This document shows, piece after piece, positions 18,337 to 57,442 of a stretch of DNA of 64,000 bases; positions within the stretch are counted from its first letter, which is position 1; each line of letters starts with the position of its first letter. The position numbers and the translations under genes are program-made. The stretch spans positions 248,001 through 312,000 of the forward strand of contig JABVCE010000009.1 of assembly GCA_014905635.1 (NCBI GenBank). The letters run 5' to 3'. The notes under the pieces are model-generated. The model was given only the letters and a program-made list of their open reading frames with translations. It was not told the origin of the DNA and did no database searches. The DNA comes from Scenedesmus sp. PABB004. Taxonomy: Eukaryota.

Positions 18337-18341
18337 TTACA
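18337..18341 (-). terminator. Probable TGTAA polyadenylation signal of the Nudix gene
   Basis: TTACA on the + strand about 90 nt after the Nudix stop; TGTAA is the established chlorophyte poly(A) signal. Confidence 0.55.
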
Positions 18342-18431
18342 GCCGGGATGGCTGAGTGGAGCCTGCAGCCAGCTCCGCGGCGCGTGTGGCGGCGGCGCGC
18401 CGCCAGGCCCTGGAAGACGGCCGGCCTGCGC

Positions 18432-31931: not shown

Positions 31932-32021
31932 GGGGCCGCCGCCCGCGCGCTCCGCGCGCCTCCCTCGAGCTTGCACGCCCAGCCCCGCTCGCGAGCGAGG
32001 AGCGATCGGTCCTGCCGGTGG

Positions 32022-33423: not shown

Positions 33424-33902
33424 GGCGCGTGGGCCCGCGCCGGCGAAGAGGCTGCGCGCGGCGCGGCAGCGGCAGCAGCGCTCGGCGGCGCTCGGCGCGG
33501 GGGACCCCCCGCCGGCGCTGCCCCGTGGGTGCGTGGGTGGGTGGGAGTTACTCACTTGCTCAGCAGGCCACGGGCGGCCAGCGGCGAGGGGTGGCGGCGC
33601 CGCGGCTGCGCGCCAGCAGCTGCTGCCGGCGCAGCGCTCGCCCGCGCGCGCGCCGCGGCCAGCATGCAGGGGGCCTCTTGGTCGGAGGGGCGATCGGGCG
33701 CGGGAGTGGGGTGGTGGAAATGCCGGGCGTGTGCCAGCCGCATGACCGCGTGACGACGACCGCGCGTGCCGGCTGCACGCGCGCGGCAAAGGCCGCACCG
33801 GCGGGAGCACACAGCCACGTCCGTCGCACGTCGCCCTGCATCACGTCCCTCCCCTCTGGTGTTGCGCGCCAGGCTAGACGCGCTGCCCTGCGGCCACGCG
33901 CG

Positions 33903-35380
33903 ATGGTGCAGCTCCCGCGCTCCCACGCGCCCGCCGCGGCGAGCGGCCTGCGCCAGGCGCTCCAGCCCGCGTCGCTGGCGGCGTGCGTGCGCCCGCGCTC
34001 GCGCCCGCGCGCGGTGGCAGCGGCGGCAGCAGCAGCGCCGGACGAGAGCGCCGCAGTCGTGGGCCGGCGGGCCGCGCTCGTCGGCGCCGCGCTGGCCGTG
34101 GGCCTGCGGGGCGCCGCGCCGGCTTGCGCGGTCCAGGGCCTCACCGCCGGCCGGCTGCCGGGTGCGGCGGCGTCGCACCGGCTGTGGTGGCCAGCGCGGA
34201 CCTCTGCCGGCCGCCGCCGGGCCGGTCGTGCGCAGCAGCTCCAGCGCGCCGACGTCCCGCCGCGTCCGCAGGCCTGACGCCGCCCCGCTGCTGCGGGCCC
34301 GTGCGCCGCCGTCCCACGTCCGCAGGCCTGACGCCCGAGCCGGACGCGGATGGCTTTTATCTGTACACGCGGCCCGAGGGCAAGAGCGGCGGGCACGGCG
34401 TGGGCTGGAGCGAGATGCCGCGCTACTCGTTCAAGGTGCGCTGCGCTGCGCTGCGCTGCGCTCAGCTCGCCTCAGCTCAGCCTCTGCGCCGCGGGGCTGC
34501 CGCCGCCGCCGCCGCCGCCGCTGCCGCCGTGCGCCGGCGTCGCACGCGCCGAGCGCCGCGCGCCGCGCGCAGGTGCCCGAGGGCTGGGAGGAGACGCCCG
34601 TGTCGATCGCGGACCTCGGGGGCACCGAGATTGACCTCCGCTTCGCGCGGCCGGACCAGGGCAACCTGCAGGTCGTCGTCGCGCCGGTGCTGCGCTTCGC
34701 CGACGTCGGCTTCAACGCAGGTGCGGGCGCGGCGGGCCGCTGAGCGCGCGGCGGGGCGCTGAGCGCGCGGCAGGGCGCCGACCGCCGCGCCACGCACCAC
34801 GCCGCGGTCGGCCTTGAACGCAGACGTGCGGATCGACCAGCTGAACCAGCCGGACGCCATCATCAGCGGCTTCGCCCCCGAGGTGCGCGCGCGGCGGGGC
34901 GCCGAGCGCGCGGCGCGGCGCCGAGCGCGCGGCGGGGCGCTCAACGCGCGGCGGGCGGGGGCCGACCGCCGCGCCGCGCGCCGCGCCGCGCCGCGCGCCG
35001 CGCCGCGCCGCGCCGCGCTGCAGCTGTTTGGCCGGCCGCTGAACGAGGGCGACGTGCTGGAGCAGCGCGAGACGGTCAAGGGCGGCGTCAAGTACTACGA
35101 GTGGTGCGACGGCCGCCGGGCCGGGGGCCGCCGGGCGGGCCCCGCGCGCGCGCCTGCGCGCGTGCTCGCCTGACGCGCCGACGCGGCGCCGCTGCCACGC
35201 GCGGCGCGCGTGCGCAGGGAGGTGAAGCCGCACAACCTGGTGTCCGCGACGGCGGTGGGCAACCGCGTGTTCATCATCAGCATCGCCGCCAAGTCGAGCC
35301 GCGTGTGGGCGCGCGCGGCCGACACGCTGCGCGCGATGCAGGCGTCGTTCTTCGTGCCCGCGCCGGGCGCGGCCGCGTGA
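33903..35380 (+). CDS. PPD6: PsbP-domain protein 6 (thylakoid lumen)
   Basis: Bipartite transit peptide with twin-Arg (GRRAAL...AxA); AGRLPGL..EPD, KSGGHGVGWS, PVSIADLGGTEIDLRF, VVVAPVLRFAD, ISGFAPE match PPD6. Confidence 0.85.
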
Positions 35381-35623
35381 GCCGGCGGCTCCAGGCCGGC
35401 TGCGTGCGAGCGGGGGCGGCGCAGGGCAGGGGGCGGGGAACGCCGCGAGGACGAGGGCCGTGAGAGGGGGAGCGGCCTCAGCAGCGCTGCTGTGCGTGCT
35501 GCCGGACGGGGCGGGCTGCTGCGCCAGTGCGAGCCGGCAGCGCCGCGCCCGCGCGTGGACGAGCGGGGCTGTGCGAGTGAGGGGCGCGGGCGGGGCGTAC
35601 GGAGCGTGCAGAGCGGGCGGGCT

Positions 35624-36288
35624 TTGCACAAGCGCGCGCGCGGGCTGGCAACTCAGGACCAGCAGCCTGGAGCTCTCCTGAGCTGCCCAGGGGCGAGCGG
35701 GCCGCGCGCGAAAGAGTGTGCGTGGTCAGCGGTCCTGGCTCTCGCCAGCCAGCCTGGCGTCGCCCTGGCCGCCTGCAGCACCCGCGCCCCCGCGATGCCC
35801 GAGGGGCTGCCCGAGCTGCTGCATCAGAGGGGTGTCTGCTGCCTGCCTGCGTGGCCAGGCCAAACCCGCCAGCTGGCGGCCAGGCCAAACCCGACAGCTG
35901 GCGGTCGCCGGCGCCGCCGACGAGCTGCCGCAGCTCTGGATCAGCTCCCCGCGCGCCCCCAGGGGCCCGCCGTCGGTGCGCGCCCAGCTCGCGGGGCCAC
36001 GCCGGCGGCGCGGGGGCGCTGCGGGGCGCTGCCGCGGGATGACGGCCGATGTGGCGCACACTCGGCAACCGCCCGCGAGTAACACGCGCCGCTGCGGCCG
36101 CCCCGGCGGCGCCGCGGGCGCGCCGGGCACACCCCCCGCCGCCGCCCGCCCCCATGAGCCGGCCGCCCTGCAGCCTGCAGCAGTTCCTGGCCCAGCTCCA
36201 CGCCTTCAGCGAACGCAGCGAAACCCAGCGCGCCCGCTGCCTGTGAGCGCACGACCGCGACGCCATGGCGACCAAGGCCGCACGTGAG
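35624..36288 (+). repeat. Right arm of ~650 bp inverted repeat; contains PEPCK upstream region, ATG and first splice donor
   Basis: Reverse complement of 31287-31931. Carries a 25-bp tandem duplication (about 35853-35903) absent from the left arm. Confidence 0.95.
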
Positions 36289-41102: not shown

Positions 41103-42704
41103 TCAGCCCACGCGCTGCCGCAGCCCCGGCAGAAGGTAGTCCCGCCGCGCCCAGCCGTGGCGCCGCCAGCCCGCCGCGCCACCGCCACCGCCGTCCGCCA
41201 GCTGCAGGCCGCCCGCGCCCGGCGCCGCCACGAGCGCGCCGGCGCCGGCGCCGCCGCCCGGGTCCGCGGCGCCGGCCAGCACGCCGGGCGGCGGCAGGGC
41301 GCGGCGCGCGGGGTCTGGAGCGTACCCGAGCGGCAGGCCGCCAACGCCCGGCTGCAGCGCCTGGACCTCCTCCCACGCCAGCTGCGGCACCGCGTGCGCG
41401 GCGAGCGCCTCGGGGCCGCCGCCCTCCTCCAGGACGTCGAGCAGCTCGTACACCTGCGCGCGATCGGCGGGCGCCGCCTCGCGCGGGCCCGCGGCTCGCC
41501 TGGCGTGCTGGCCGCCGCGCTGGCATGCGTGCGCGTGCCACGGCGTAGAGCCGCGCACGCGCCGGCCGCACCTGCGCCTGCAGCGCGGCGGGGTGGGTGA
41601 TCATGATGTCGAGGTCCCCCGCGTCCAGCGACAGCAGCTTGCCCAGCACCGGCTCGGGCAGCGCGAGCGTGACGGGCGCGTCCGGCGCCGCGGCGGCCGG
41701 CGCGCGCGGGGCGCCGGCGGCAAAGCCCGCCGCCGCCGCGGCCGCCGCCACGGCCGGCGAGTCGGCCGCCGCCTCTGCCGCCGCGAGCAGCGCGTGCGTG
41801 CTGTCGCCGCCGGCGAGGGCGGAGCCGAGGTGCAGCTCCAGCAGCGCGGCGTGGATGCGCTGGCGCGTCCACTTGTTGTAGTAATACCACTTTGGGCGGG
41901 GGCGCAGCACCTCGGGCAGCCGCAGCTCCGCCTCCTCCGCCAGCTGGCCCAGCAGCCCCGCCAGCCCGCCGCGCCGCCACGCCGCCGCCTGCGCGGGCGC
42001 GAGCTCCGCCGCGAGCGCTGCCAGCCGCGCGGCGAGCGCGGGCTCGCCCGGCGCGCGCGCGGCGGCGGCGGCGGCGTGCACCACGGCGTCCGGCCACCGC
42101 GCCAGCGCGGCGTGCACCTCGGCCGCCAGCGACAGCGCTGGCACCCAGGCGCAGGCGGGCGCGGCCGGCGCTTGCACCGGCGTGGCCGGCGCTGGCACCG
42201 GCGCGGCCGGCGCTGGCACCGGCGCGGCCGGCGCTGGCGCCGGCGTCGTCTCCGCGGTCGGCGCTGGCGGCGGTGCGAACGCGAGCGCGGCGTTGGCGTC
42301 GCGCAGCGCCTGGCGGGTGTTCCCCGCGTGGAGGTACGCCCAGCCGCGCGCCCACGCGATCACGTGCCGCGGCGCTGCAGAGGGTGGGCGGGCAGGTCAG
42401 GGGGTCCAGGTCAGGGAGCGTGCAGGCTGCAGCGGCGGCGCTCACGCAGCGGCGGCTCACGCTTGCGGGCGCGCAGCGGCGCAGCGTGCTCGGCGAGCTC
42501 GGCCGCGAGGTGCGGGCGCTCCGCGGCGGCCGCCACCAGCGCGCCCGCAAGCTCTGCAGCGCCCATGCGCTCGTGGCGCGGAGGCAGGCGCAGCAGCGCG
42601 CCGTCGCGGGCGCTGAAGTGCGCTGGGCGCTCGGCGGCGGCGACCGCAGCCGCTGCCGCCTCTGCCGCCTCTGCCGCTGCCTGGGCGAGCCCCTGCGCGT
42701 CCAT
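41103..42704 (-). CDS. TPR-repeat protein with C-terminal MLLE/PABC-like segment
   Basis: TPR-like helices ARGWAYLHAGNTRQALRDANAAL and LAAEVHAALARWPDAVVHAAAA; C-terminal LGKLLSLDAGDLDIMITHPAALQAQVYELLDVL; two GT-AG introns. Confidence 0.6.
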
Positions 42705-42718
42705 ACCACGCTCTTGCA

Positions 42719-43211
42719 GGGCGGGCGGCGCGCTCCTGCGCGCGCGGCGCTGCTGCGCTGCCGGCAGCGGCGGCGGCCGGAGGCAGCCAGCCGCGCGGCC
42801 GAGCGCTGGATGGGGCGCGGTGAGGAGCGTGGCGGGGTGACCAGGGAGCGGGGCGAGGCGGGAGCTGGGGGCCCGGCTGCAGCCCCACACCCGCGGCGGC
42901 CTGGTTGGCGCCACCGAGGCACCGGCGCAGCGGGCGGGCCCCGGCTCCTGCCGGGCGCAGGCAAGGCTGCCCCAGGTCCCCGCGAGCTCTTTCAGAGTCT
43001 CCCGCGACCGAAATCGGGGCAGGGCTGCGAGTCGGGCGGCCGCTGACTTTTCGGCGCCCGAACGACCGCGCGCGCCGACGCGACGCCGCCTGGCGCCAGC
43101 GCGCGTCTGGCGTCAGGCATGCAGGGCTGCGATCACGGGGACTTTACACAGGCCGCCGCCGCACCGGCAGCGGCGCCCGCGCTCGCTCGGTTCGCTCGCA
43201 CAGGGTCACCT
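42719..43211. repeat. Direct copy (~490 bp) of 48319-48821 (MetRS stop, 3' flank and Kunitz-gene upstream region)
   Basis: Colinear with the second copy at an offset of about 5600 nt with few substitutions; includes TTACA (43144-43148) and GGGTCACCT. Confidence 0.95.
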
Positions 43212-43212
43212 T

Positions 43213-43487
43213 AAAACTGTGGGCGCGCCGGGGCCGGCGGCGCGCGGGGCCCGCGCGTCCCGGGGAGCCCGCACCGCGCCCGCCCACACTCGCAGAACCC
43301 TTCTGCCCTGCCAGCCCAAAAAATGCTCGAAACCGCCCCCTTGTCAGCCAGGGGGCCAGCCAGGGCCGCACACGGGCGTCTGTCGGCGGCTCAGCGGCCA
43401 GGGCGGTCGGCAACGCCGAGCAGCAGCAGGCGGCAGCAGCATGGCGCTCACGTCGCGCCCGGGCGACGCGGGCGCGCTCAAGGTCGC
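43213..43487 (+). repeat. Inverted copy (~275 bp) of MetRS upstream region plus first ~16 codons (54774-55047)
   Basis: Reverse complement match; ATG at 43441 reads [16 protein letters not shown], identical to the MetRS N-terminus. Confidence 0.95.
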
Positions 43488-43493
43488 GCCAGC

Positions 43494-46198
43494 TCACGCA
43501 GGCAGGTGCAGGCTGCGCCCGAGCGGCAGCAGGTGCACGACGAGCTGCTTGTCGCGCCGCCGCGGCAGCAGCCTCGGCGGCTGGTCGTGCCGGTGCGCGT
43601 GGGCGTCGTGGTGATGGTGCGCGCCGGGCTCCGCCTCCTCCTGCGCCGCCGACTGCTCGTCCAGCGCCGCGCAGCGCACCACCTGCGCGCGGGGGGCGGC
43701 ACAGTGTGTGAGCGGCAGCCGCCGCGCAGAGCCGGCGGCGCGCCGCAGCATGCCTCGGCACGCACGTGCACGGCCTGCAGGGCGCCGTGCGGCGAGCGCT
43801 CCAGCTCAAACGCGGGCACGTCACACGCGTCGAGCACGAGGCGCCCGAGCAGCGGCGCCGCGGCGACGACGGCCGCGGCAAAGCCCGGTCCGAGCGGCGC
43901 GGCGGCGTGGCGCAGCGCGAGCGAGCGCAGGCTCGCGCCCGCGCCGGCGCGCAGCAGCTCCAGCAGCGCCGCCTCGCTGAAGGACGGCCGCCAGCACGCG
44001 GCGCGGCCGGCGCCGTCGGCGGTACAGCAGTCCTCGAGCCGCAGGTGCTGCAGCGCGCACGCGCAGGCGGCCAGCGCGGCGAGCAGGCCGTCGCTGAGCC
44101 CACGTGCTCGGACGAGGCACAGGCTGGCGAGCGTGGTCCAGGGCGACGACGGGGCGGCGCGCGGCAGGCCGAGCAGGGCGAGCAGCTGCGCGTCTGTCGT
44201 GGGCATGGGCGGGCCGTCCAGCTGGAGCGTCGACATGCGCCAGCGGTGCCGCGGCGGCGGGCCTGGCGCCATGGCCGCGTCAAAGGGCCCCACACACTGC
44301 TGCAGCTGCAGGCAGACGAGCTTGGGGCAGCCGCCAAGCACCGCCGCGACGCCTGCGCGGGCAGCAGCGGCCGCGCGATGGGCGGGCGAGGGCGCCCGAG
44401 CGCGGAGCGGGAGCGCCGCACGCACGCGGCCCTCGCCGGCGGCGGCCAGCGCACCGTGACTGCTGACGGCGCACAGCGTCAGGCAGAGGCGTGCCAGGTG
44501 GGGGCAGCTGGCGGCCAGGCAGCGCAGGGCTCCGTCGTCCACGCCGGCGCCCACGCCTGCCGTGAGGCTGTTCAGCAGCGGCGCGCGCCGCAGCAGCACG
44601 CACACGCCCGCGGCAGACCAGCCCCAGCCCACAGCAAGCTGCACGACGCACGGAAGCCGCGGCTGCGGCGGCTGGTCAGTCACGTGCTGCTGCTGCTCCG
44701 CCTGCTGCTCCTCAGCTGCCAGCCGCAGCAGCGCGGCCTCCAGCTTTGCCGTGCCGCCTGCGGCGCGAGGCGTGCGGCGAGCGTGCGACCACACAGACCT
44801 GCCATCAGCGCGGCGCGGGGCGCGCGCGCGCGGGCGCGCGCTTGCCGCACCGTCCGCGGCCAGCGTGACGCAGCCGGCCGCTCCCAGCCGCCGCAGCGCG
44901 CTGCAGCTTGTCAGCAGAGCGGCCAGGCAGGCGGCGCTCAGGGCCGTGGCATCAGACAGGTCCAGCTCCACCAGCCGCGCCAGTGCCGCCGACCAGGCCG
45001 ACGGCGCCGCGCTGGCGCTGCTGCCGGCCGTGCAGGCGCCGTGTGGGGTGAGCGCGGCGTCTGCGTTGATCCTGCGCGCCACGAGCACTGCGGCGACAGA
45101 CGGCGGCGGCAGGTCGGCGGTTGCCTGCGGCCGCGCGCATGCGCGCGCACGCGGGGGCGGCGCCGCGCCGCCGCACCTTCCAGCCGCGGCAGGCGGCACA
45201 GCGCGGCTCGGAACTCCGAAAACGGCCCGCCCCCGCCCCCGTCCGGGGGGCCCTGCAGCCCCGCGCAGCCCGACACGTCCAGCACGCGCAGCTGCGGCCC
45301 GATGCTGCCCCCACGGCTGCAGAACAGCGCGGGACGAGGGCCCGCCGGGCGCTGCGCCGCGCCGCGCTCGGGTGCCAGCGCCGCAAACGTCGCGCCCGCC
45401 GCGGCCGTGCCCGCCAGCCCCAGGCTGGCCAGGCCGCTGCTGCAGCGCCGCAGCAGGCACATCATGCTCTGCTGGCTCAGGGCCGCCAGCCCCGACAGAT
45501 CCAGGTGGCGGATCCCCGCCACAAAGCCCTCGGGCGCGTCCAGCGCCAGAAACTCGGCGTCACCCGCCGCTAGGGGTCCCTGGAGCGCGAGCGCCGACTC
45601 CCCCCGCACCAGCGGCAGCTGCAGCAGGCGCGACGCGGGCGCCTGGCCGGGCAGCAGGCCCAGGCCGAGCGCCGCGTCCGCGCCGGCGCCGGGCGCCAGC
45701 CGCGGCGGCCAGGGGCTCGCGAGCGCCGCGACGCTGGCGGGCGGCGGCGGCAGGTGCAGCAGCAGCGCCTGCGCCTGCGCCTGCGGCGGCGCCTGCGGCG
45801 CCGCTGCCTGCGCCTGATCCCCGCCAGCGGGCGTCTGCTTGAGCGCCCGCATGACCTGACCCAGGCGCGTGGCGGTGTCGCGCGTGCAGAGGTGCTCCAA
45901 AAAGCGCTGCAGCTGCTGCAGGCCGTGCCACGACGCGCAGCTCGCCAGCACGTCGGCGACGGGGTTGCAGCGCTGCGCGCCGGCGCCCGCCGGCGCCCGC
46001 GGCAGCGGCGGCGCCGCTGCGCCGCCCCACTGGTTGGGCTGGCGGTCGGGGCCCGCAGGCGGCAGGTGGCCGCGCACCAGCGCGCCGCCGGCGCCGCCGC
46101 AGAGCATGGCCGTCGCGGCGCCGTCGGTGATCAGGCATCCCGTCTCCCGGAGTTGCGCCCCGGCCGGCACAAAGAAGCCGCTGAAGTCGACGAGAGGC

Positions 46199-46236
<38 letters not shown>

Positions 46237-46553
46237 GTGGTGCTGCTGGTTGTGGTGCTGCCGCACCGCTGCCGCGCGCTGCACGGCGTCCAGCAGCAGC
46301 TGGTCCCGCCACCCGCCCGCGGCGCCCGCGTGCAGGCTGCTGCGCGCCGCCGCGCTGCGTGCCGCCAGCGAGCCTGCCTCGGGGCAGCGCCTGCTGCCGC
46401 TGGCGCGGCCGGGGCTGCGCGTGGCGGCGCACCGAGCAGCAGCAGCGCGCAGCAGCGCCGGCAGCAGCACGCCAGCGCGAGCTGGTCCGGCAGCTCGAGC
46501 CGGGACGCCACCGCCAGAAGCAGGACGTCCGGCAGATCGCCGGCCAGCGCCAT
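43494..46553 (-). CDS. F-box / leucine-rich-repeat (RNI-like) protein
   Basis: MALAGDLPDVLLLAVASRLELPDQLALACCCRRC (F-box); LRRs IRHLDLSGL, LRVLDVSGC, LVELDLSDA, LRRLGAAGC, LQHLRLEDC. Confidence 0.8.
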
Positions 46554-46740
46554 GCTGCGGGCGGCCGAGCAGCGCCGGCGGCGGTGGAGCGGCGGTCGCC
46601 GCTGTCGCTGCTGCCCTCGCGTGCGGCGCGGCGGCCTGGTGTTGCTGTTGTTGCAACAGCTGGCGCACACCACAACTTCTGACGGCCGCCGCAGCCGCCG
46701 CGGCACAGCCGCACGCTCAACCGCAAAGCCCTGAACGCGG

Positions 46741-48252
46741 TCACGGCACTGCCGCGGCGAGCAGGCCGGCCGCCGCCGCGGCGAGCGCGGCGCCGGCGCC
46801 CGGCGCGCGCGCGCGCTGCCCGACGCCGCCGGCGCGGGCTCGGGCGCGCCGCCCGCGGCCAGCACGACGTCCGGCTCGGCCTGCACCGGCACCGGCACCA
46901 GCGAGAAGCCGGGCGGAGGCGGCGGCGGCAGCGCCGGTGCGCCGGCGGCGCCGGTGCCCGCGCACGCCGCGTCGCACACGGCCTCGCTGCCAAAGTTGTT
47001 GCCGTTGCCGCCGCATCCGCCCCAGGTGAACGCCACGCAGCGCGCCGCCTCGGCGCTCCACGCCCAGCGCCGGATGGAGGCGCGGCAGGGCCCGGCCACC
47101 GGCGGCAGGCGGCAGAGCGCGAGGCGCGCGGGCAGCGCGGCGTAGCCACCCGCCGCGCTGTCGTCAAGTTGGGGCGCGCTGGCGGGGTCGCCGCCGGCCG
47201 TCGCGTTGCCGGCGGCGCGGTAGGTGGCGTTGCCGGCGCCGCCGGTGACGTTGACCGGAGACTCGGGGCTTGGCGGCGGCGCAGGCGAGGTGCCCGGCTC
47301 CTCGGCGGGCGGCGCAGGGCTGGCGGGGCTCGGCGACGGCGCAGGCGAGCTGCCCGGCTCGTCGACCGGCGGCGCTGGGCTGGCGGGGCTCGGCGACGGC
47401 GACGGTGGCTTCGGGGGGCTTGGCGGCGGCGGGGGCGATGGCAGCGGAGGCGGCGGCGGGGGCGACGGCGGCGGCGGGGGCGGCGGCGGGGGTGGGGGCG
47501 GGGGCGCCCCCGCCGGCGGCGGGGGAGACGCGCCCTGCAGGAGGTGCCGCGCGACGGCGTGGTGGCCGCCGCGCGCGCCGGAGCAGCCGAGCGGCGCCGC
47601 TCCGCCGCCCCAGGCGCGCAGGTAGGGCTCCAGCTCAGCCTCGGGGCTGCTCCGGCTCTCGGTGTCGGCCTCTGGGAGCGTGGCGTACTCCACGGCACGG
47701 AGCGGCACCTGTGCGCCACCCCCTGCGCAGGCGCGGCGAGGCGCGGCGGACGGGTCAAACCGCTCCACGCGCGTGGCTCGACCGGCTGCCGCGCTGCCGC
47801 GCTGCCGCGCTGCCGCGCTGCCGCGCACCGCGCTCGCCGGCCTGCAGCAGGAAGACGTAGCGCAGCGCGGCGTGGGCCTCCGGCGCCGCGGCGTGCCCCG
47901 CGCACGTCAGAAGGTCAACGCCGACGACCGCCACGGCCCCCGCGAGCGGGGGCGGGCCCGCGCCGCCCGGCGTCAGCGCCCAGGCGCACTCGACGTCCAG
48001 CGTGGCCGACGCGCCCGTCAGCCCGGCGCCGGCGGCGGCACCGCGGCCGCGCGCCGCGGCCGCCAGGCTGCGCAGCGCGCCCGGCGGCGCGTCGCACGCC
48101 TCGATGCGAGCGCTGACGAGCAGCAGGGCCGGCTCTGGGCTCTCCGCGGTGCGCGCCGGGCTCAGCAGCGCGCCGAGCACGAGCAGGACGGCGAGGGCCA
48201 GCACAGCGAGGTGCCACGGCGCGCCGCCGCGCCGCGCCGGCTGGCCCGCCAT
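46741..48252 (-). CDS. Secreted Pro/Ser-rich (HRGP-like) protein with BPTI/Kunitz domain, probably GPI-anchored
   Basis: Signal peptide WHLAVLALAVLLVLGALL; SPPPP/SPSP repeats; CRLPPVAGPCRASIRRWAW...CVAFTWGGCGGNGNNFGSEAVCDAAC (six Kunitz Cys). The hydrophobic tail ending at 46741 is out of frame by 2 nt as assembled. Confidence 0.8.
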
Positions 48253-48318
48253 GCTGGCGCCTGACGCGCGTGCGTGTGAGGCTAACAAGTCCAGGGCTCC
48301 GGGAATCACGCGCGGGCG

Positions 48319-48821
48319 GGGCGGGCGGCGCGCTCCTGCGCGCGCGGCGCTGCTGCGCTGCCGGCAGCGGCGGCGGCCGGAGGCAGCCAGCCGCGCGGCC
48401 GAGCGCTGGCTGGGGCGCGGCGAGGAGCGTGGCGGGGTGACCAGGGAGCGGGGCGAGGCGGGAGCTGGGGCCCGGCTGCAGCCCCACACCCGCGGCGGCC
48501 TGGTTGGCGCCACCGAGGCACCGGCGCAGCGGGCGGGCCCGCGGCTCCTGGCGGGCGCAGGCAAGGCTGCCCCAGGTCCCCGCGAGCTCTTTCAGAGTCT
48601 CCCGCGACCGAAATCGTGGCAGGGCTGCGAGTCGTGCGGCCGCTGACTTTTCGGCGCCCGAACGAACGCGCGCGCCGGCGCGACGCCGCCTGGCGCCAGC
48701 GCGCGCCTGGCGTCAGGCGGGCACGGCTGCGATCACGGGGACTTTACACAGGCCGCCGCCGCACGGGCAGCGGCGCCCGCGCTCGCTCGCTTTCGCTGGC
48801 GCAGCCGCGGTGGGGTCACCT
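48319..48821. repeat. MetRS 3' flank / Kunitz upstream region, duplicated at 42719-43211
   Basis: Direct sequence match; TGTAA signal on the minus strand at 48744-48748. Confidence 0.95.
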
Positions 48822-51800
48822 GATGCTCGCGCCCGCCACGCTCGCGACGCGCACGGGCCCCGCGCTCGTGGTCAGCGGCGCGCCCTTGTAGCACGCGACC
48901 AGCTCGGCGTTTGTGGCCAGGTCGGGCTGCACGCCCTCAAAGACCTTCTTCTTGGGGTTGAGCTGCTCGTCCGGCTCGCCGGCAAAGCCCGGCACCGTCA
49001 CGCGCTCGCCGACCGGCGCGCCCGCCGGTGGCTCCAGCAGCTCCACCTGCAGCGGCGCGCGGGCGGGCTCAGCGCGGCGCGCGCGGGCGGGGCTGCGTGC
49101 CGCGCCGCGCGCCGCGCGCGCCGCCGCGCGGGCTGCGTCGGCGGCGCGCACCTTGCCGCTCGTGGGGCACGTGGCCGCGAGCACCATCGCCTGGCTCACG
49201 ATGCCCCGCATACCCGCGGGCTTGAGGTTGGCGACCACCACGACGCGCCGCTGCTGCATCTCCGCCTCGGGGATGTGCTTGACCAGCCCGCTCACCACGG
49301 TGCGCGGGCCGGAGGCCTCGCCGAGGTCAATCTCCTCCACTGAGCCGTCAGGTGGGCGGCGGGCGGCGGGCGGCGGGCGGCGGGCGGCGGGCGGCGGGCG
49401 GCGGGCGGCGGGCGGCGGGCGGCGGGCGGCGGGCGGCGGGCGGCGGGCGGCGGGCGGCGGGCGGCGGGCGGCGGGCGGCGGGCGGCGGGCGGCGGGCGGC
49501 GGGCGGCGGGCGGCGGGCGGCGGGGCGGGCGGGCGGGCGGGCGGCGGCGGCGGGCGGCGGGCGGCGGGCGGCGGGCGGCGGGCGGCGGGCGGCGGCGGCG
49601 GGCGGCGGGCGGCGGGCGGCGGGCGGCGGGCGGCGGGCGCGGCGGGCGGGGGCGGCGGTGCAGTGCGTTAGCGACGCGGGCCGGCGTGGCGCGGCGCGGC
49701 GCGGCACGGCCGGCGGCGCGCAGGGCTCGGCGTGCGGGGGGGGGGGGGGGGGGGGCTGCCCGCCCGGCGTGCGGCGCGCGGGGCTGCGCGCGCGCGTGCA
49801 GGGGCTGCGCACCGTAGAGGCTGTCCGCGTCCGGGTGGCGCCAGGCTTTGGTGATCAGGCCGACGCGGAGGTCCAGGCGGCTCACGTCCACCGGCCGCTC
49901 CGGCTCCTTGGCGCCGCGCGCCGCCGCCGCCGCCCTTGGCCTTGGCGCCGCCGGGCGCGCCGCCGCCTTCGCGGCGCCGCCCTTGCCGCCCGGCTTGGCG
50001 CCCGGCGCCGCGCCGCCGGCCGCCGCCGCGGCCGCCCGCGGCGTCGTCGCCTGGCTGCCGCCAAGCGCGCGCGCAGCGCCGCGACGACGTCGTCTTTGAT
50101 CTCACTGATGAGCGGCGCGGGCGTGCCGATCGCGTGCCCCGGCGCCACGAGGCCCTGCGGCGCCGCCGCGCCGGCGACGAGCTCGTCGCTCAGCGCCGCC
50201 GCGGCCGGCGGCAGCGCGAGCTGCTCCAGGATCTTGTCGGTCAGCGTGGGCATGTAGGGGCTGACCAGCGCAGCGAGCAGCCGCACGACGCCCACGCCTG
50301 CGCCCGCCGGGGGCGTGCCGCGCGCGGCGCGGAGGCAGCGAGATGACATCAGCGCGGCGGGTGTGGCGGCGGGTGCGGCGGGTGCGGCACGGTGGCAGCG
50401 GCGGCGCGGCGGCAGCGGCGCGTACCCGCGGCGACGAGCGTCGCGGCGTGCTCCGGGTCGGTCTTGACGACCTTGAAGGGCTCCGTGTCGGTGAAAAACT
50501 TGTTGCCGTCGGCGCTGACCGCCATGGCGAGCCGGATGCCGTCGCGCAGCTTCATCTGCGCGTGCGACGCGCGCGGCACGCGGCGGCGGCGCGTGTGGGC
50601 GGGTGTGGGCGGGCGGCGCGCCGGGCGCGGCGCGGCAGCGGCGCTGCAACTGCGCGCGTGCGAGCGGTCGCGGGCGCGGGCGCGGGCGCCGTGCCTTCTC
50701 CATGGCGGCGATGTACTCGGCCACCTTGGCCGACACCGACGCGCCGAGCTCCGCCGCCGCGTCGGCGCCCTTGGCCGTCGGCGCGGGCACGGCGCCGCCG
50801 AAGAACTTGACCACAAACACCAGCGCGCTGCGCGGGCGCAACGCGGCGGCGGCGGTGCGGCCCGGCGGGTGGCGCGTTCGGCGGCCGCGAACGCGCGCGG
50901 GAGCGCGGGCGGGCGCAGCAGGGGCGCGGCGGGCGGGCGGGCGAGCGCCGGCGCAGCGCCCCGGACGCCTCCCTCGCTGCACGCGCCCCAGGGACGCGGC
51001 CGCCGCGCCCCGGACGCCTCCCTCGCTGCAGGCGCCCAGGGACGAGGCTGCCGCGCTGCACGCGCCCCAGGGAACGAGGCCGCCGCGCCGCCGCCGCGCC
51101 GCCGCCGCGCCGCCGCGCCGCTGCGCCGCCGCGCGCACCGGTTGATGAAGTTGCCGAGGTTCTTCAGCAGCTCGTTGTTGCAGCGCGCCTGCGGCGGGCG
51201 CGCGGCGGCGCCCCACGGTCGCCGGCGCCCCCGGCACCGGCGCGCCGTGCGGCGCGCGCGCATGCTTCTGTGGCTGCGCGCGCGCTCGCGCCCAACACGA
51301 CACACAGCACGCGCAGCGCGCGCGCGCGCGCGCGGGCCGCGCCTGCAGGTCGGCCCACTTGAAGTCGGTGTCCTGCGCCTCGGGGCGGTTTGCGAGCAGG
51401 TAGTACCGCCACACCTCCACCGGCAGCCCCGCCTCCATCGCGTCCGTGCCAAACACGCCTGCGCGCCGCGCGCCGCCGCGGCGCGGCGGGCTCGCAAAGC
51501 GGCCGGCGTGCCCACGCCTGCCCGCCGCCCGCCGCGCGGCCGCGCCCTGCCCCTCCCCTGCCCCCCTCCCCGCGCCGGCCGCCGCGCGTTCGCTCCGCGC
51601 CCTCCGTCGCCGCGCGCCGCCGCGCGCACCGGTGCCACGGCTCTTGGAGAACTTCCCGCCCTCGTAGTTGAGATACTCGGTCACGCTGATGTTCCGCATC
51701 ATTGTCCAGGGCCCGCCGCTGCCGATGAGGCTCGCCGGGAAAATGACGGTGTGGAAGGGCACGTTGTCCTTGCCCATGAACTGCACCAGCTCCACGTCGC

Positions 51801-54800
51801 CCGGCGACTGCCACCTGCGCCGCGGCGCCGGGCGGGCGTGGGCGGGCGTGGCCGGGCGCGGGAGGGCGGGAGAGCGGGAGAGAACGGAGCGCGGGCGGGC
51901 GGGGAGGGTGGGCGGGTGGGAGGGCGGCCGCGCGGCGCGCGGCGGCGCGCACCACTGGCGCCAGTGGGGCGTGTAGTTGGCGGTGATGCTGATGTAACCG
52001 ACCGGGGCGTCAAACCAGACGTAGAAGACCTGCCGGGCGGCGCACGGGCGGCGGCGGCAGAGTTGCGGCGGGGGCGGCGGCGCAAGGGGGGCAGAGGCGG
52101 AGGCGTGCGGCGCGGGGCGGGCCGGGGCGCGGCCGGCGCCCTGCGCGGCGCCGCCTGTCGCATGAGGCGGGGCCGCACCTTGTCCCGGTAGCCCTCGAGC
52201 GGCACGGGGATGCCCCACTTGAGGTCGCGCGTGATGCAGCGCTGCTTCAGGCCGTCGCGCATCCACGCGCCCGTGGTCTGCGCGCCGCCGGCGCGGCGGC
52301 GGCGGGCGCGGGCGTCGCGGCGGTCGGCCGCGCGAGCCGGGCGCGCGGCGGGCAACGCGCCCCGGCGCCGTGCGCCGCGCACGCCGTGCGCCGCGCCGCG
52401 GTGCGCGCCTGCACGCAGTTTGCGCTCCACCCGCCCAGCTGGCTGGTAGAGTCGATGTAGTGCTGCAGGCGGTCGCTGAGCTTGGGCAGGTCCAGGAAGA
52501 GGTGCTTGGTGGAGCGGATGACCGGCTTGGTCCCCGTGAGCTTGCAGCGCGGGTTGATGAGCTCCGTCGGGTTCATCAGCCCGCCGCACTTGTCGCACTG
52601 GTCGCCGCGCGCGTCCTGCGGGCGGCCGGCCGCCGCGCGCCGCGCCGCGCGCAGGGCTGAGTTCGGGTCGACCCCGCCGCCGGGCGGCCGCGGCGGCGGC
52701 GGCGGCGCCACCGCGGCAGGGCGCGGCGCGCCGAGTGCCCACGGGCGCCGCACCTCGTAGCCGCACTTGGGGCAGGTGCCGCTGACAAAGCGGTCGGCCA
52801 GGAACTTGCCCGCCGCCTCGCTGTACAGCTGCTCCATGGTCTGGCCGAGGGGAGGAGGCGGCGGGGGCGCACGCGGCCGCGGCGGCGGCGGTCACGGCGG
52901 TGTGTGCGGCAGGCCCATCCTTCTAGCCCGGCCCGCGCCGGCGCTCGCGCGCGCGCGTGTGGGCCTGCTGCGCACCTGCTCGCTGATGTTGCCGGCGTCC
53001 CAGAGGTCCTTGAAGAGCGACTGGCAGATCTCGGTCTGCGCCCTGCGCGCGCGCGCGCGGCGGAGGCGCCCGGCCCGGCGGCCGCGCTCGGCGCGCGCGG
53101 CGCGCACGCGCGCAGGCTGCGCGGCGGCGGCCGCGCGGGCGGCCGGCCGGCCGCGCGCGCGGGCCGCGCGCGCACCGCGTGGGCGTGCGGCCAAACTTGT
53201 CGAAGCTGCAGCCAAACCACTCATACACGGCGCGGTGCACGGCGTGGTACTTGTCGCAGATCTCGGCGCAGCTCAGGCCCTCCTCCAGCGCCTGCGCCCC
53301 GCCGGCGCGGCGCGGCGCGGCGGCGGGGCGGGGCGGGGCGGGCGCGCCGCGTGAGCCCGCCGGCGCCGACCGCGCGCGCGCGCGCCCGCCCCTCCGCCCG
53401 CTGCCTGGCCGCGCCGCCCGTCACCCCCTCGGCCCGCTGCCATGACGGCCGCGGCCACCGCCGGGCCGCCGCGCCGCCGGCGACGCGCCTTGGTCTCGGT
53501 GGCGGTGCCGTACTCGTCTGTGCCGCAGATGAAGATCGCGTTGTGCCCGCGCGCGCGCGCGTAGCGCGCGTAGCAGTCGGCCGAGAGCACGCAGCCGATG
53601 ATGTTGCCGAGGTGGGGCACGTTGTTCACGTACGGCAGCGCGCTCGTGACCTGGGGAAAGGCGCCGCGGGCGGCGTGGCGTGGGCGCACGCGCCGCCGCG
53701 GCGGCGGCCGGCGCGCCGCGAGGAGGAGCTGCCGGCCGGCGCGTGCGGCCGCGCCGCGCGCGTGCGGCCGCGCGCGCGCGCACCAGGATGTTGCGCGCGC
53801 CCTTCTTGGGCAGCTTGGGCAGGCGCGCCGCGTGCGCCGCGGCGTCGGCCTCAAACACAGACAGCAGCGCGCCCGCCGGCGCGCCGGCGAGGAACTGCGC
53901 GGCGAGGCGCCGACGCGCGGCGCACCGCGGCGGGCGCGGGCGCGCCGCGTGAGCGGGGCCGGCGCGCGGCACGGCGGCGGTCATCGCGTGTGTGGGCGCG
54001 CCGCACCGTGGCCGTGCCCTGCTGCACCGCCGCCTCGCCCGCGAGCCGCGCCATGAAGCCCGCCACGCCCGGCGGCAGCGCCTCGCCCTTCTCCTGCAGC
54101 GGCAGGAGCGTGCAGTACACGGCGACCTGCGGCGGCGCGCGGGCGCGGCGCGCTCGGCGGCGGGGCGGGCACGGCGGCGTGAGCGCGGCCCCTCTGCCCG
54201 CGCCGCCGCTCACGTCTGCCAGCGTCACGCCGCTGCCGGCCACGAGGCCGCCGTGCTTGGCGAGCTGCGCGTCAAGCGCCGCGAGCGCGCCCGTCGCCGC
54301 GTCGCCGCCCTCGAGCGCCGCGGCGCGCAGGCTGCCGGCCTCCCACTGCAGCCACTGGTCCACGCACGCGGCCTGCTGCGGCGACGCCGGCGCGAGCGCC
54401 GAGCCTGCGCGCGGGGCCGGCGGGCGGCGGCGGCGCCGTCGGCGCGCGCCGGACCGTTTCCCTGCGGCTCGCAGCCGCTGCGCCGCCGGCTGCGGAGGCC
54501 CCCGGGCGCCGGCCGGCCGGCGGCAGCCCGCGCAGCAGCGGCGCGGGCGGCAGCGGCCGCCGCCCCGCGCGCGCCGGCGGCCCGGGCGCGCCGCTGCGCC
54601 GCGGTTCCGATGGCGGGGCGTGGTACCCACCTGCCAGGCAGGCGGCCGCGGCGTTGGGCTCGGTCAGCAGCGCGCCGTCCGGCGTGGCCAGCGCCAGTGA
54701 TGGCCGCCCGAACGCGTCCGCCGGCGCGCCGGGCGTGAGCGTCAGCTGTACGCCAGCAGCCGCCGCCGCGATGGCGACCTTGAGCGCGCCCGCGTCGCCC

Positions 54801-54820
54801 GGGCGCGACGTGAGCGCCAT
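48816..54820 (-). CDS. MARS: Cytosolic methionyl-tRNA synthetase with N-terminal GST-like and C-terminal EMAPII/tRNA-binding domains, about 18 exons
   Basis: [18 protein letters not shown] (HIGH), GTDEYG, CPKC/CDKC zinc knuckles, [48 protein letters not shown]. Confidence 0.96.
49354..49655. repeat. (GGGCGGC)n heptamer tandem array inside a MetRS intron
   Basis: About 300 bp of near-perfect GGGCGGC units within intron ~49341-49812. Confidence 0.95.
50957..51090. repeat. Intronic minisatellite (~49-bp unit, ~2.5 copies) in MetRS
   Basis: cgccccggacgcctccctcgctgca(c/g)gcgcc(c)cagggacg repeated. Confidence 0.8.
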
Positions 54821-55163
54821 GCTGCTGCCGCCCGCTGCTGCTCGGCGGTGCCGACCGCCCTGGCCGCTGAGCCGCCGACAGACGCCCGTGCGCGGTCCTG
54901 GCTGGCCCCCTGGCTGACAAGGGGGCGGTTTCGAGCATTTTGTGGGCTGGCAGGGCAGAAGGGTTCTGCGAGTGTGGGCGGGCGCGGCGCGGGCTCCCCG
55001 GGGCGCGCGGGCCAGCGCGCCGCTGGCTCCGGCGCGCCCACAGTTTTGGAAGTCCGTCCAACGCCCGCCCCGGTCCGTCGGCGCCCCACACACGCCCCGC
55101 CGCTGCCTCCCCGGCCGGGGCGCACGCGGCCACCGGTCCGCGGCGGGCTCGCCGGGCACCGGC

Positions 55164-57266
55164 ATGGCGGCGGCGCCGTGTGCCGCCGGGGCGCCGCCCG
55201 GGCTGGAGGCGGTGTCGCCGTGGGACGGGGCTTGGTATGATGTCGACCTGCCCCGCTCCGTGCTGGCCCCCCACCCGGGCGGCACGCGCTGGGGCGTCAA
55301 GCTGGCGCTGAGGTGGGGCGCCGGGCGCGCGCGAGGGCGGCGGCGGGCGGCGGCGGCGCCGGCGGCGGGCGCGCGCCCGCGCAAACGCGGGGGCTGACGC
55401 ACGCCTGCCGCCGCCGCCGCGCGCGCCGCCCGCCCCGCCCCGCCCGCCCGCGCGGCGCCCGCGTAGGGCCTTCCCGGATGCGGAGGGCCAGGTCGTGCTG
55501 CCTGAGGCTCTGCCCGGCCGCGTGCGCACCGCCAGCCGGTGAGCAGCAGCAGTAGGGCTCGCGCTGCGCCCAGCGATCCGCGATCGGCGGCGCGCGCGGC
55601 GGCGGCGGGCGGCGCGCGGCCGCGGCGCGGCGCGGTCCCGCCCTCACCCGCCGCGCGTTCGCGTTCGCGGCCGGATCCGCCGCGCAGGCCGCTGCAGGAC
55701 GGCGAGTGCCGGCGCCTCGTGCCGGGCGCGCGCGTCGTCGTCGCGCAGCCGCCCGGCGGCGAGCGCAAGTGCGACGTCGAGATCGTGAGCGTGGAGCCCA
55801 CGCAGCACGGCACGGGTGCGCGCGCTGCCGACGCCGCCCGCAGGGCCCCCGCCGCTGCGCCGCCGCGCCGGGCCGCCCCCGCCCGACCCCGCCCCGCGCG
55901 ACCCCGGCCTGCCCCTGCCTCCCCCGCCGCCGCCGCGGGCGGGCGCAGGCGTGGGCGAGTGCGGCTGCGTGTTTGGCGTGCGGTACGTGTTTGAGCACGA
56001 GGCGGCCGCGCGCGCGGCAGGGCAGTTCAACGAGCCCACTGCCACGGCCGTGCGCCTGGCGGACCTGCGCAGCCCGGGGGCCCCCGCGACGGCGCACCCC
56101 GCGGCCGTGCGCTGGCTCGCTGAGATCCAGGAGCGGGAGCGCCCCGCCGCGCCGCCGGCAGCGGTGCAGCAGCAGCAGCTGCCGCCGACGGCCGCCGCGC
56201 CCGAGGCGGCGCCGGTGGAGGCGCCGGCGGCCGCGCCCGACGCGGCGCCGGCGCTGGTGGCGGCCCCCGACGCCGCGGCGCTGGCGGCAGCGCCGCTGCC
56301 TGCTGGCGGCCTGGCCGCGACCGGCGCCGGCTGGGCGATCAGCGGCCAGCCCGGCGCCGCCGTGGCCCCGGGCGGCGCCGACGCGGCGCGGCAGGCCATG
56401 CTCCGGCAGGCGATGATGGCTGAGGCGGCCGGCCGCCAGGCGAGCAACGCGGCCGCGGCGGCGGCCGCCGCGGCGGCTGCCTCCGGCGGCGCGGCGGTGT
56501 GGGCGCCGGCAGCGGCCGGCGTCGTGCCGCTGGCGCAGCCGCTCGTGCAGCCGCTGGCGCAGCCGGCGGCGGCGGCGCTGCCGGGCTCGTTCACCGCGCT
56601 GCTGGCGGGCGCGATCGGCACGTCCCCGACGCCGCCGCCCCAGGCGACGGCGCCTCCGCCGGCGGCGCCGCGGCCCGCGGCGCGGCGCAGCAGCCCCGCC
56701 GCGGCGTCGCTCGCGCGGCAGGGCGGCGCCGGCGGCGCGGCGCTCAAGCGCCCCGGCGTCGACGTGGGCGCCGCCGCGCCCAAGCGCTCGCGCGCGATCA
56801 TCCCGCAGCTCACTCCGCAGCAGCAGCAGGCGGCCGCGGCGGCGATGATGGCGGCGGGCGGCCACGCCGGCGGCGGCGGGCCGCGCGGCCTCAGCGGCCG
56901 CGTGTCGCCCGGCGCTCAGCCGGTCGGCGCGGGCGCCAACGGCGCCAAGGCTGCCGCGCAGGTCGCGGCGGCGGCCGCCGCCGCGCAGCAGCGCACAAAC
57001 TTCCAGCAGCTGCAGCAGCTGCAGGCGGCGGCGATCAAGGTGCTCGGCACCGCGCCCGGCCACGCGGCGGCGGTGCAGAACCTGCAGCAGCAGCAGCAGC
57101 AGATTCAGCAGCAGATCCAGCTGCAGATTATGCGCCAGGTCATGCAGACGGGCGCGTCGCCGCATGCCGCCGCCGCCGCCGCGGCCGTGGCGGCCGCGGG
57201 CAAGTCGGGCGCCCCCGCCGCCGGCGCGGCCGGCGCGCCGCAGCAGCAGACGCTGATGCAGCAGCA

Positions 57267-57307
<41 letters not shown>

Positions 57308-57362
57308 TCGCGATGCAAGCGGTGGTTGCGCAGATGCAGCAGCAGCAGCGCGCGCAGGCGGC

Positions 57363-57442
<80 letters not shown>

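Follow-up and report, generated by a model that had tools for sequence, protein, structure and literature searches.

The 781-bp spacer between the stop codon of an F-box/LRR gene and the ATG of a neighbouring gene, referred to here as T, in Scenedesmus sp. PABB004 is a composite of two copies of sequence flanking a nearby MetRS gene, with none of the native spacer left. The structure lies in a 64,000-nt window (positions 248,001–312,000 of the forward strand of contig JABVCE010000009.1, assembly GCA_014905635.1) of compact, gene-dense and intron-bearing eukaryotic DNA of roughly 80% GC. The composite starts 6 nt past the F-box stop (43494–43496) and finishes 2–14 nt short of the T ATG (42704), and these few nucleotides at its edges are the only non-copied remainder. 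We read the spacer as a break-repair scar, a known kind of structure, and not as a gene, mobile element or RNA, and consider it to be either a one-step patch from two templates or the product of two staggered-break inversions. The patchwork made from the two MetRS ends is young, and consists of the following features, listed with the parent sequences and the adjacent genes:

42414–42704, minus strand: first coding exon of gene T with the ATG at 42702–42704, from codon periodicity and an ORF.
42707–43211, minus strand: piece A, a direct copy of the last MetRS codon, the stop and the 3′ flank up to the Kunitz 5′ flank.
43144–43148, minus strand: copy of a TGTAA motif (TTACA on the plus strand), 346 nt downstream of the F-box stop.
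43212, unstranded: filler base T at joint J1 between A and b (an inversion-type joint), equal to the next base of neither parent.
43213–43487, plus strand: piece b, an inverted copy of 227 nt upstream of MetRS and of its first 16 codons from the ATG (43441–43487).
43441–43614, plus strand: 57-codon ORF running from the copied MetRS ATG antisense through the F-box 3′ end.
43494–43688, minus strand: last exon of the F-box/LRR gene with its stop, from codon periodicity and the homologue P0001.
48307–48821, minus strand: parent A′, the last MetRS codon, the stop (48816–48818) and the whole spacer to 54–66 nt before the Kunitz ATG (48250–48252).
54774–55047, minus strand: parent B, MetRS codons 1–16 (ATG 54818–54820) and 227 nt upstream.

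Both copied pieces were recovered by self-BLASTN (42500–43800 queried against the whole window) and in a listing of repeats, in agreement with an earlier note on this DNA which had described two copied pieces joined across 1 nt. The longer match aligned 42707–43203 directly with 48307–48804 at 95.6% identity over 499 columns (19 mismatches, 3 gap openings, E = 0), and the shorter aligned 43213–43487 with 55047–54774 in inverted orientation at 96.0% over 275 columns (E = 4e-127); the remaining matches of this query were three short GC-rich alignments of 35–119 columns (76–89%, E 5e-7 to 6e-6). The repeat listing of the window gave the direct pairs D4, D5 and D17, with a spacing of 5600/5599, and the inverted pair I1 (240 nt, 97%). 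When the whole window was compared with itself, three non-self pairs of at least 80 nt were found at E <= 1e-10, these being the two MetRS-flank pairs and one unrelated inverted pair. Each piece is present in two copies within the 64 kb, and the dispersed copies that the earlier note had suggested looking for were not found there.

Piece A is about 96–97% identical overall to its template A′, which lies 5.6 kb away, extends for some 505 nt downstream of the MetRS stop and was copied directly, and A spans an entire stop-to-ATG spacer. Its left limit is fuzzy, with four mismatches in the 12 nt of 42707–42718, and the clean homology begins at 42719, which is the left coordinate given previously; from this point there are 492 aligned positions with 15 mismatches and four indel events (1, 1, 1 and 9 nt). 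The 9-nt event is a deletion in A relative to the parent near 43203, and is followed by the 8-mer GGTCACCT (43204–43211), identical to 48814–48821, which includes the MetRS stop (48816–48818 on the minus strand) and the last sense codon; we estimate the probability of such an 8-mer matching by chance at about 0.01. Piece b and its parent B are inverted duplicates of low-copy sequence 11.3 kb apart, with 10 mismatches and one gap in 274 aligned positions and no differences within 43441–43487. B sits in a 344-nt divergent spacer with a plus-strand gene on the other side (ATG 55165), and the body of MetRS between A′ and B is 5,952 bp. As the last codon and stop, and likewise the ATG and 16 codons, continue into a gene at the MetRS locus alone, the MetRS sequences are the parents, and the coding relics were copied from the MetRS locus to the spacer, as had been supposed. 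The inverted piece was also correctly described before as the MetRS upstream region plus 16 codons, but the distance to the F-box stop (43494–43496) is 6 nt and not the 7 nt then reported.

Three novel joints (J0, J1 and J2) fall inside the 781 bp. J1 is blunt, with the single T at 43212 accounting for the 1 nt noted earlier between the pieces, and has no microhomology, and at J0 the motif CACGC is common to both sides and is a possible 5-nt microhomology. No target-site duplication was found, as only this same 5-mer recurs near both outer joints and its recurrence is within chance, and the composite has no terminal repeats, hairpin end or poly(A) tail.

The coding regions around the spacer were assessed by codon periodicity, Pfam and protein searches. 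The neighbours named in the earlier note as MetRS, Kunitz and F-box genes all have matching Pfam domains (Kunitz_BPTI and F-box for the last two); those of MetRS, on the minus strand (tRNA-synt_1g, Anticodon_3 and tRNA_bind), are spread over several frames and the gene therefore has introns. No intron was identified in the copied MetRS parts, where the only larger gap between A and A′ is the 9-nt indel. The position of the F-box stop is backed by codon-position GC periodicity and by P0001 (38% identity), the C-terminus of which aligns almost to the end of the F-box protein. For T the homologue is P0003 (42% identity), with an alignment that begins downstream of the first exon; tblastn detected nothing in the whole window corresponding to residues 1–355 of P0003, so that homology does not confirm the T start, and the TPR label previously given to T rests on one TPR_2 match below threshold (E = 0.0086, 16.6 bits against a cut-off of 27). 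The protein searches returned one distant homologue for each of these two genes, from which synteny is not derivable. There is no codon periodicity in 42705–43493, and an Rfam search of 42000–56000 matched no family. The 57-codon ORF does exist on the plus strand as claimed earlier, and the coding periodicity across the F-box end at 43441–43614 belongs to the minus strand.

The two pairs have diverged equally (15/492 mismatches for A/A′ and 10/274 for b/B, Fisher p = 0.67), which fits a single event. Differences in piece A are concentrated in the last 50 nt (six events there and 13 in the remaining 443 nt, p = 0.008) and those in piece b in the first 61 nt (five there and five in the remaining 214 nt, p = 0.046), both intervals having been chosen post hoc, and such clustering on both sides of J1 is the pattern expected from error-prone repair synthesis. 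Related metagenome contigs vary too at 43244–43262, and the clustering may merely reflect a locally variable GC-rich tract. Five Pfam scans (of 21, 51, 59, 120 and 54 entries, certain ORFs being included more than once) gave no match to a reverse transcriptase, transposase or integrase among the window ORF translations scanned.

Four freshwater-metagenome runs match the window, with shares of 0.13 or less, and the public runs listed as matching include none of RNA. The contigs on 41800–49300 are mostly short GC-rich pieces which diverge from the window beyond the match, and none of the pieces listed for this interval bridges J0 or J1. A 178-nt contig (X4 record 26, depth 2.9, nine differences) covers 43337–43512 and extends 25 nt past J2, and was not counted as a bridge, for which 31 nt are required. 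Another, X3 record 17 (320 nt), is placed over precisely 43213–43487, continues for a further 43 nt unlike A, and resembles what the parent locus would be in a relative. A related contig of 204 nt is A-like at two variable sites and A′-like at three, and relative to it each copy has private changes. In the metagenome contig collection a 28-mer common to b and B had no matches, and a scan for the F-box protein gave 599 pattern matches, none of which was confirmed.

A second inverted duplication in the window shows the same style as the MetRS-flank spacer. It pairs 35560–36288 with 31991–31287 (89.5% over 744 columns) and comprises the PEPCK promoter and exon 1; since promoter sequence and 5 nt of intron are included, it is DNA-derived. 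The natural SDR-to-PEPCK spacer is preserved in this pair, which fits a single inversion of the staggered-break type. Each of these two independent duplications sets an inverted copy of a housekeeping promoter and start codon tail-to-tail with the 3′ terminus of a different gene, 6 nt past the stop for MetRS and 49 nt for PEPCK. Of the nine homology limits, one is 117 nt before an ATG, and the other eight are each no more than about 66 nt from a CDS end, inside codons 1–16 or at intron 1. With two such duplications in one 64-kb window, break repair appears to generate small duplications regularly and thereby to alter the structure of this genome.

We tentatively favour one complex event in which the stretch from the F-box stop to T was lost and patched from two MetRS templates. 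The original sequence between the F-box stop and the T start would have disappeared, and the MetRS 3′ flank 5.6 kb away would have been copied directly and the MetRS 5′ flank 11.3 kb away from the other strand, with the pieces united by end joining or template switching and the 1-nt filler left between them; we infer a single-event mechanism of the replicative or end-joining kind. Nearby low-copy templates, one of them inverted and the whole discontinuous, fit MMBIR or templated insertion, and the MMBIR model as presented in PMC2621351 produces discontinuous, partly inverted duplications from nearby templates. Against the one-step patch, it is flush with both coding regions (6 nt and 2–14 nt), which a random deletion-plus-patch would rarely be, J1 lacks the 2–5 bp of microhomology usual in MMBIR, and the PEPCK duplication is better accommodated by a staggered-break inversion. 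The other main route, which we regard as somewhat less likely, follows the Drosophila model and invokes two local inversions, successive or compound, each produced by staggered breaks that were filled in and end-joined. The ancestral order would have been T ← MetRS, divergent from Kunitz → F-box → Y; a first inversion would flip MetRS with a stagger of about 515 nt across the MetRS–T spacer, giving A/A′ and the joint between A and b, and a second would flip the block of MetRS, Kunitz and F-box, the stagger being one of 274 nt over the 5′ end of MetRS, giving b/B and the joint between b and the F-box gene. Piece A would then be the native promoter region of T, with the Kunitz gene having received the copy, and A does cover a whole stop-to-ATG spacer as a native spacer would. 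A block-by-block reconstruction from the coordinates yields every observed joint, the joint between A and b is of the 'p next to inverted q' type predicted by the model, and the PEPCK pair provides a single inversion of this type in the same window. In the Drosophila inversions described by Ranz et al. 2007 (PLoS Biol, PMC1885836), 17 of 29 carried non-repetitive sequence duplicated in inverted orientation, with sizes between 46 bp and about 1.9 kb, a median of 321 bp and a copy identity of 88 ± 5%. Six had sequences of both breakpoints at each breakpoint, some breakpoints were reused, and the ends were united by non-homologous end joining, in keeping with the blunt J1 and its filler. However, this route requires two events while A/A′ and b/B are equally diverged, the second inversion has to break once more at the first joint with a precision of about 1 nt, and the implied ancestral spacer from the F-box stop to the Y ATG is just 123 nt. 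The reciprocal joint of a single double-staggered inversion (inverted A beside B) is also absent, A′ being direct and separated from B by MetRS, and the structure consequently fits the inversion model only as two successive inversions.

Explanations of other kinds seem to us improbable to differing degrees. During assembly, MetRS flanks from another allele or strain might have been misthreaded into the contig, and the 3–4% divergence is in the range of strain variation and no source read set was found, the four metagenome runs being all that matched. This would need three chimeric joins in 781 bp with no k-mers common at the joints, the copies differ from the parents and are not a collapsed or duplicated read, and the private changes seen beside the 204-nt contig argue slightly in the same direction, making an artefact quite improbable. 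Pack-MULE and Helitron-type elements are known to capture chimeric gene fragments in either orientation, and an element of this or the MITE type could have carried the MetRS fragments. The two copies of each piece in the 64 kb, the contiguity of each parent with MetRS, and the lack of terminal inverted repeats, target duplication, hairpin end, transposase domains among the ORFs scanned and metagenome-contig matches to the 28-mer make this the most far-fetched of the readings considered. An internally deleted, 5′-inverted MetRS retrocopy made by twin priming, with the inverted 5′ UTR and 16 codons joined to the direct 3′ end, is very improbable. In the MetRS sense an inverted 5′ piece does precede a direct 3′ piece, which is the topology of the L1 5′ inversions described in PMC10760644 (citing Ostertag and Kazazian 2001), and the outer limits of the pieces could equal transcript ends. 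However, there is no A/T tract at 42700–42707 to represent a poly(A) tail, no target-site duplication or direct repeat at the outer joints and no reverse-transcriptase domain among the window ORFs scanned. The 3′ piece also continues for about 430 nt past TGTAA to 54–66 nt before the next ATG, and probably includes non-transcribed promoter DNA, and the PEPCK duplication is DNA-derived.

The patch may have given neighbouring genes new control regions. On the one-step reading, the F-box mRNA would have to end inside foreign sequence. The earlier note had proposed that this gene borrowed a poly(A) signal and, while TGTAA is indeed present in the copied MetRS 3′ flank (the parent motif is at 48744–48748, 68 nt after the MetRS stop), the borrowing is not supported as TGTAA occurs five times on both strands of the 64 kb against 5.8 ± 2.4 in shuffles. 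Judged by sequence, the 5′ flanks of T and the Kunitz gene are paralogous and may include the shared promoter proposed in the earlier note; T would now carry a 5′ flank related to that of Kunitz, and a putative copy of the MetRS promoter would face the F-box 3′ end and point antisense into that gene. The new repeats could have consequences of their own, in that the 275-bp inverted repeats could flip the 11.3-kb F-box/Kunitz/MetRS block with MetRS kept intact, and the direct repeats of about 500 bp could lead to the loss or doubling of the F-box and Kunitz genes. It seems improbable that breaks in this genome prefer gene boundaries and that whole promoter or terminator modules are reused as cassettes. 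If the boundary bias is due to neither chance nor selection, it could reflect regulated or transcription-coupled rearrangement which makes antisense control of neighbours, or alternatively an invertible 11.3-kb F-box/Kunitz/MetRS cassette that would work both ways because the MetRS promoter is intact in both 275-bp repeats and codons 1–16 are the same in the two. If real in the organism, the spacer is a clean natural case in which a whole intergenic control region was replaced by copies of a neighbour's flanks, from the terminator side and the promoter side, with four coding regions intact. Events of this type can change how nearby genes are expressed, give rise to antisense promoters and, through the new repeats, prompt further inversions or deletions. 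At present its value is that of a documented case and a testable lead.

Among known systems, Pack-MULEs and Helitrons resemble the spacer in being chimeric blocks of host gene fragments in mixed orientation, but it lacks their termini, their multiplicity and any element-specific sequence between the pieces. L1 twin priming, as treated in PMC10760644, likewise takes a single transcription unit, omits its middle and joins the inverted 5′ part to the 3′ part in direct orientation, but the spacer has no poly(A) tail or target-site duplication, no reverse transcriptase was seen nearby, and the copy reaches into DNA that is probably not transcribed. The spacer resembles the inversions in the Ranz et al. 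2007 account in several ways: non-repetitive flanks, gene ends among them, are duplicated over a few hundred bp, b/B is inverted, both segment ends lie side by side at the joint between A and b, the joint is blunt with filler, the breakpoints are free of transposable elements, the pieces (505 nt and 275 nt) are within the range of tens of bp to about 2 kb, and the copy identities are comparable (88 ± 5% in flies, 96% and 89.5% here). It differs from them in that A/A′ is direct, the reciprocal joint is missing and no fewer than two inversions, one of them reusing a joint exactly, would be required. FoSTeS/MMBIR, in the form given by Hastings, Ira and Lupski 2009 (PMC2621351), shares with the spacer the use of nearby templates, one direct and one inverted, which are stitched together to replace a deleted stretch, a possible 5-nt microhomology at one joint and differences that cluster near joints. 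The central joint here is a 1-nt insertion and not 2–5 bp of microhomology, and, unlike the events described there, this one has been fixed in a compact and gene-dense locus with all four coding regions preserved.

Comparison of positions 42500–43800 with the whole window by BLASTN returned two strong non-self matches, and these bear out the earlier note's account of the 781-bp spacer between the F-box stop and the ATG of the downstream minus-strand gene T as a chimera of two pieces copied from the ends of the MetRS locus and joined across 1 nt. Piece A (42707–43203) is a direct copy of 48307–48804 with 95.6% identity over 499 columns, and piece b (43213–43487) is an inverted copy of 55047–54774 with 96.0% identity over 275 columns. 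A 9-nt deletion in the A copy is followed by GGTCACCT (43204–43211), which is identical to 48814–48821 at the MetRS stop and last sense codon, so that A and b meet across a single unmatched T (43212). Counted from its clean start at 42719, A has 15 mismatches to its parent over 492 aligned positions and four indel events, b has 10 over 274 positions and one indel, and the 47 nt copied from coding sequence are free of differences. Only 6 nt separate the composite from the F-box stop, and 2–14 nt from the T ATG, so that essentially no native spacer is left. When the whole window was compared with itself, these two pairs were among the three non-self pairs of at least 80 nt found at E ≤ 1e-10.

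Gene ends in the region, set by codon-position GC periodicity
54818–54820, minus strand, MetRS ATG
48816–48818, minus strand, MetRS stop
48250–48252, minus strand, Kunitz ATG, followed by a hydrophobic, signal-peptide-like stretch
43494–43496, minus strand, F-box stop, also supported by the homologue P0001
42702–42704, minus strand, ATG start of the T coding exon

The copied ATG plus 16 codons continue into an exon with matching periodicity at 54774–54820 only, and the last codon with the stop adjoins the rest of the MetRS gene at 48816–48821 only. As these coding relics run into a gene only at MetRS, those in the spacer are the derived copies. The remaining ~500 nt of A and its parent may be a native 5' flank of either T or the Kunitz gene.

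The window contains no Ns, G+C is ~80% throughout 40–58 kb, and the genes are split among reading frames and therefore have introns. Pfam placed the tRNA-synt_1g, Anticodon_3 and C-terminal tRNA_bind domains of MetRS in minus-strand ORFs at ~53.98–48.82 kb, a Kunitz_BPTI domain at ~47.1–46.96 kb (minus strand), and an F-box at ~46.54–46.44 kb (minus strand) followed by weak LRR matches. The Kunitz domain and F-box share a single stop-free frame of 591 codons (46134–47906, minus strand), and may represent one gene, or two with the stop reached by splicing. The F-box C-terminus is supported by P0001 (38% identical), the alignment of which skips a ~74-nt intron (about 43762–43689) and continues through a His-rich tract nearly to the end, P0001 being longer by just 3 residues. 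The putative ATG of T at 42704 is placed by periodicity, and its TPR label depends on one sub-threshold TPR_2 match in Pfam. The single T homologue, P0003 (683 aa, 42% identity), aligns only from 42357 downwards; the match (41355–42357, minus strand) covers only the C-terminal ~330 residues of P0003, and the 355 additional residues at its N-terminus are matched nowhere in the window. A 5' truncation of T at this locus, or an over-extended gene model for P0003, may explain this.

Other genes in the window are ordinary (acyl reductase, Plus-3, kinesin, ZIP, NUDIX, SDR, PEPCK and peroxidase). The MetRS gene contains a G-rich 7-nt microsatellite (GGGCGGC, 49354–49658, 43 copies, 95% matches) that closely precedes the tRNA_bind exon in gene sense; we take it to be a putative intron or low-complexity linker, and its G-runs suggest that a G-quadruplex is possible. 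A plus-strand ORF holds a long GCA/CAG triplet array (57240–57441, 67 copies) that is complementary to a CTG-rich tract in the F-box gene region (46197–46282), and together the two account for the spurious inverted-repeat matches I2–I25 in the repeat search.

The spacer has no coding periodicity, no Rfam match, and no terminal inverted repeats, target-site duplication or poly(A) tract. No reverse transcriptase, transposase or integrase domains were found by Pfam in ORF translations scanned across the window, and a 28-mer common to b and its parent had no match in a metagenome contig collection; with neither the features nor the domains of a transposable element found in the window, such an origin is unlikely. 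An assembly artefact would require three chimeric joins within 781 bp and leave the private differences of each copy unexplained, and we regard it as very improbable. Less probable still is a twin-priming retrocopy of MetRS, the topology of which fits (PMC10760644), but which should have left a tail and target duplication, neither of which is present, and the copied stretch extends into probable promoter DNA.

The roles the earlier note gave to the spacer, including a poly(A) signal borrowed by the F-box gene, are inferences. In the MetRS 3' flank TGTAA is found 68 nt past the stop, and the copied motif is 346 nt past that of the F-box gene. The window has five occurrences, where shuffled sequence gave 5.8 ± 2.4, so the motif is at chance level and is not an established signal of this organism.

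TGTAA occurrences in the window
18337, 31274, 43144, 48744, 51993

Three of the five sit 37–346 nt beyond a stop codon in the matching orientation, and another overlaps the stop of a putative minus-strand ORF called mechanically (18340–18750). The new repeats would be expected to make the locus structurally unstable. Recombination of b with its parent would flip 11.3 kb with MetRS still intact, and recombination of A with its parent would lead to either loss or duplication of the F-box and Kunitz genes.

The whole-window self-comparison also found inverted copies at 35560–36288 and 31991–31287 (89.5% over 744 columns). These contain the 3' flank of the SDR gene (stop 32022–32024), the PEPCK promoter, a 5' UTR that holds an upstream ORF of 30 codons, and PEPCK exon 1 (7 codons) plus 5 nt of intron 1. 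The PEPCK copy ends 49 nt past the stop (31235–31237) of a gene on the plus strand and is directed antisense into that gene, as b is into the F-box gene. One staggered-break inversion, of 31992–35559, would account for this pair, and the pair shows that such duplication events recur in the window.

Homology limits of the two duplications
42706, 43487, 48306, 48821, 54773, 55047, 31286, 31991, 36288

Of these nine limits, eight fall no more than about 66 nt from a CDS end, within the first 16 codons, or at the first intron. The remaining one (55047) precedes the ATG of the plus-strand gene Y by 117 nt and that of MetRS by 227 nt. This may reflect chance, a compact genome in which selection keeps genes intact, or breaks that fall at gene boundaries.

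At the joint between A and b, which is of the inversion type and has a filler of 1 nt, the MetRS stop-codon end is connected to the far-upstream end of the MetRS promoter on the opposite strand. We tentatively favour one complex event, the most parsimonious explanation, in which the old spacer would have been deleted, the gap patched from two nearby templates via template switching or fragment capture, and the copied pieces sealed by end joining. This is supported by the equal divergence of the A and b pairs (Fisher p = 0.67) and by the clustering of differences to either side of the joint (p = 0.008 and 0.046, with windows chosen post hoc). Two staggered-break inversions, from a starting order of T, MetRS, then divergent Kunitz, F-box and Y, would reproduce all joints and make A the native MetRS–T spacer, in agreement with Drosophila, where, according to PMC1885836, inverted duplications sized from 46 bp to about 1.9 kb accompany 17 of 29 inversions, six have sequences of both breakpoints side by side, and breakpoints are reused. 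However, the second inversion must reuse the joint of the first to the nucleotide, and the ancestral F-box-to-Y spacer would be 123 nt; we hold this history to be somewhat less probable than the single event.

The spacer is a real, young and low-copy break-repair duplication, and gives a tidy example of regulatory flanks reshuffled. Duplications of this kind are known. MMBIR-type events are described as yielding discontinuous, partly inverted duplications (PMC2621351), and the spacer duplications are likewise discontinuous and partly inverted, which we count in favour of the single complex event.
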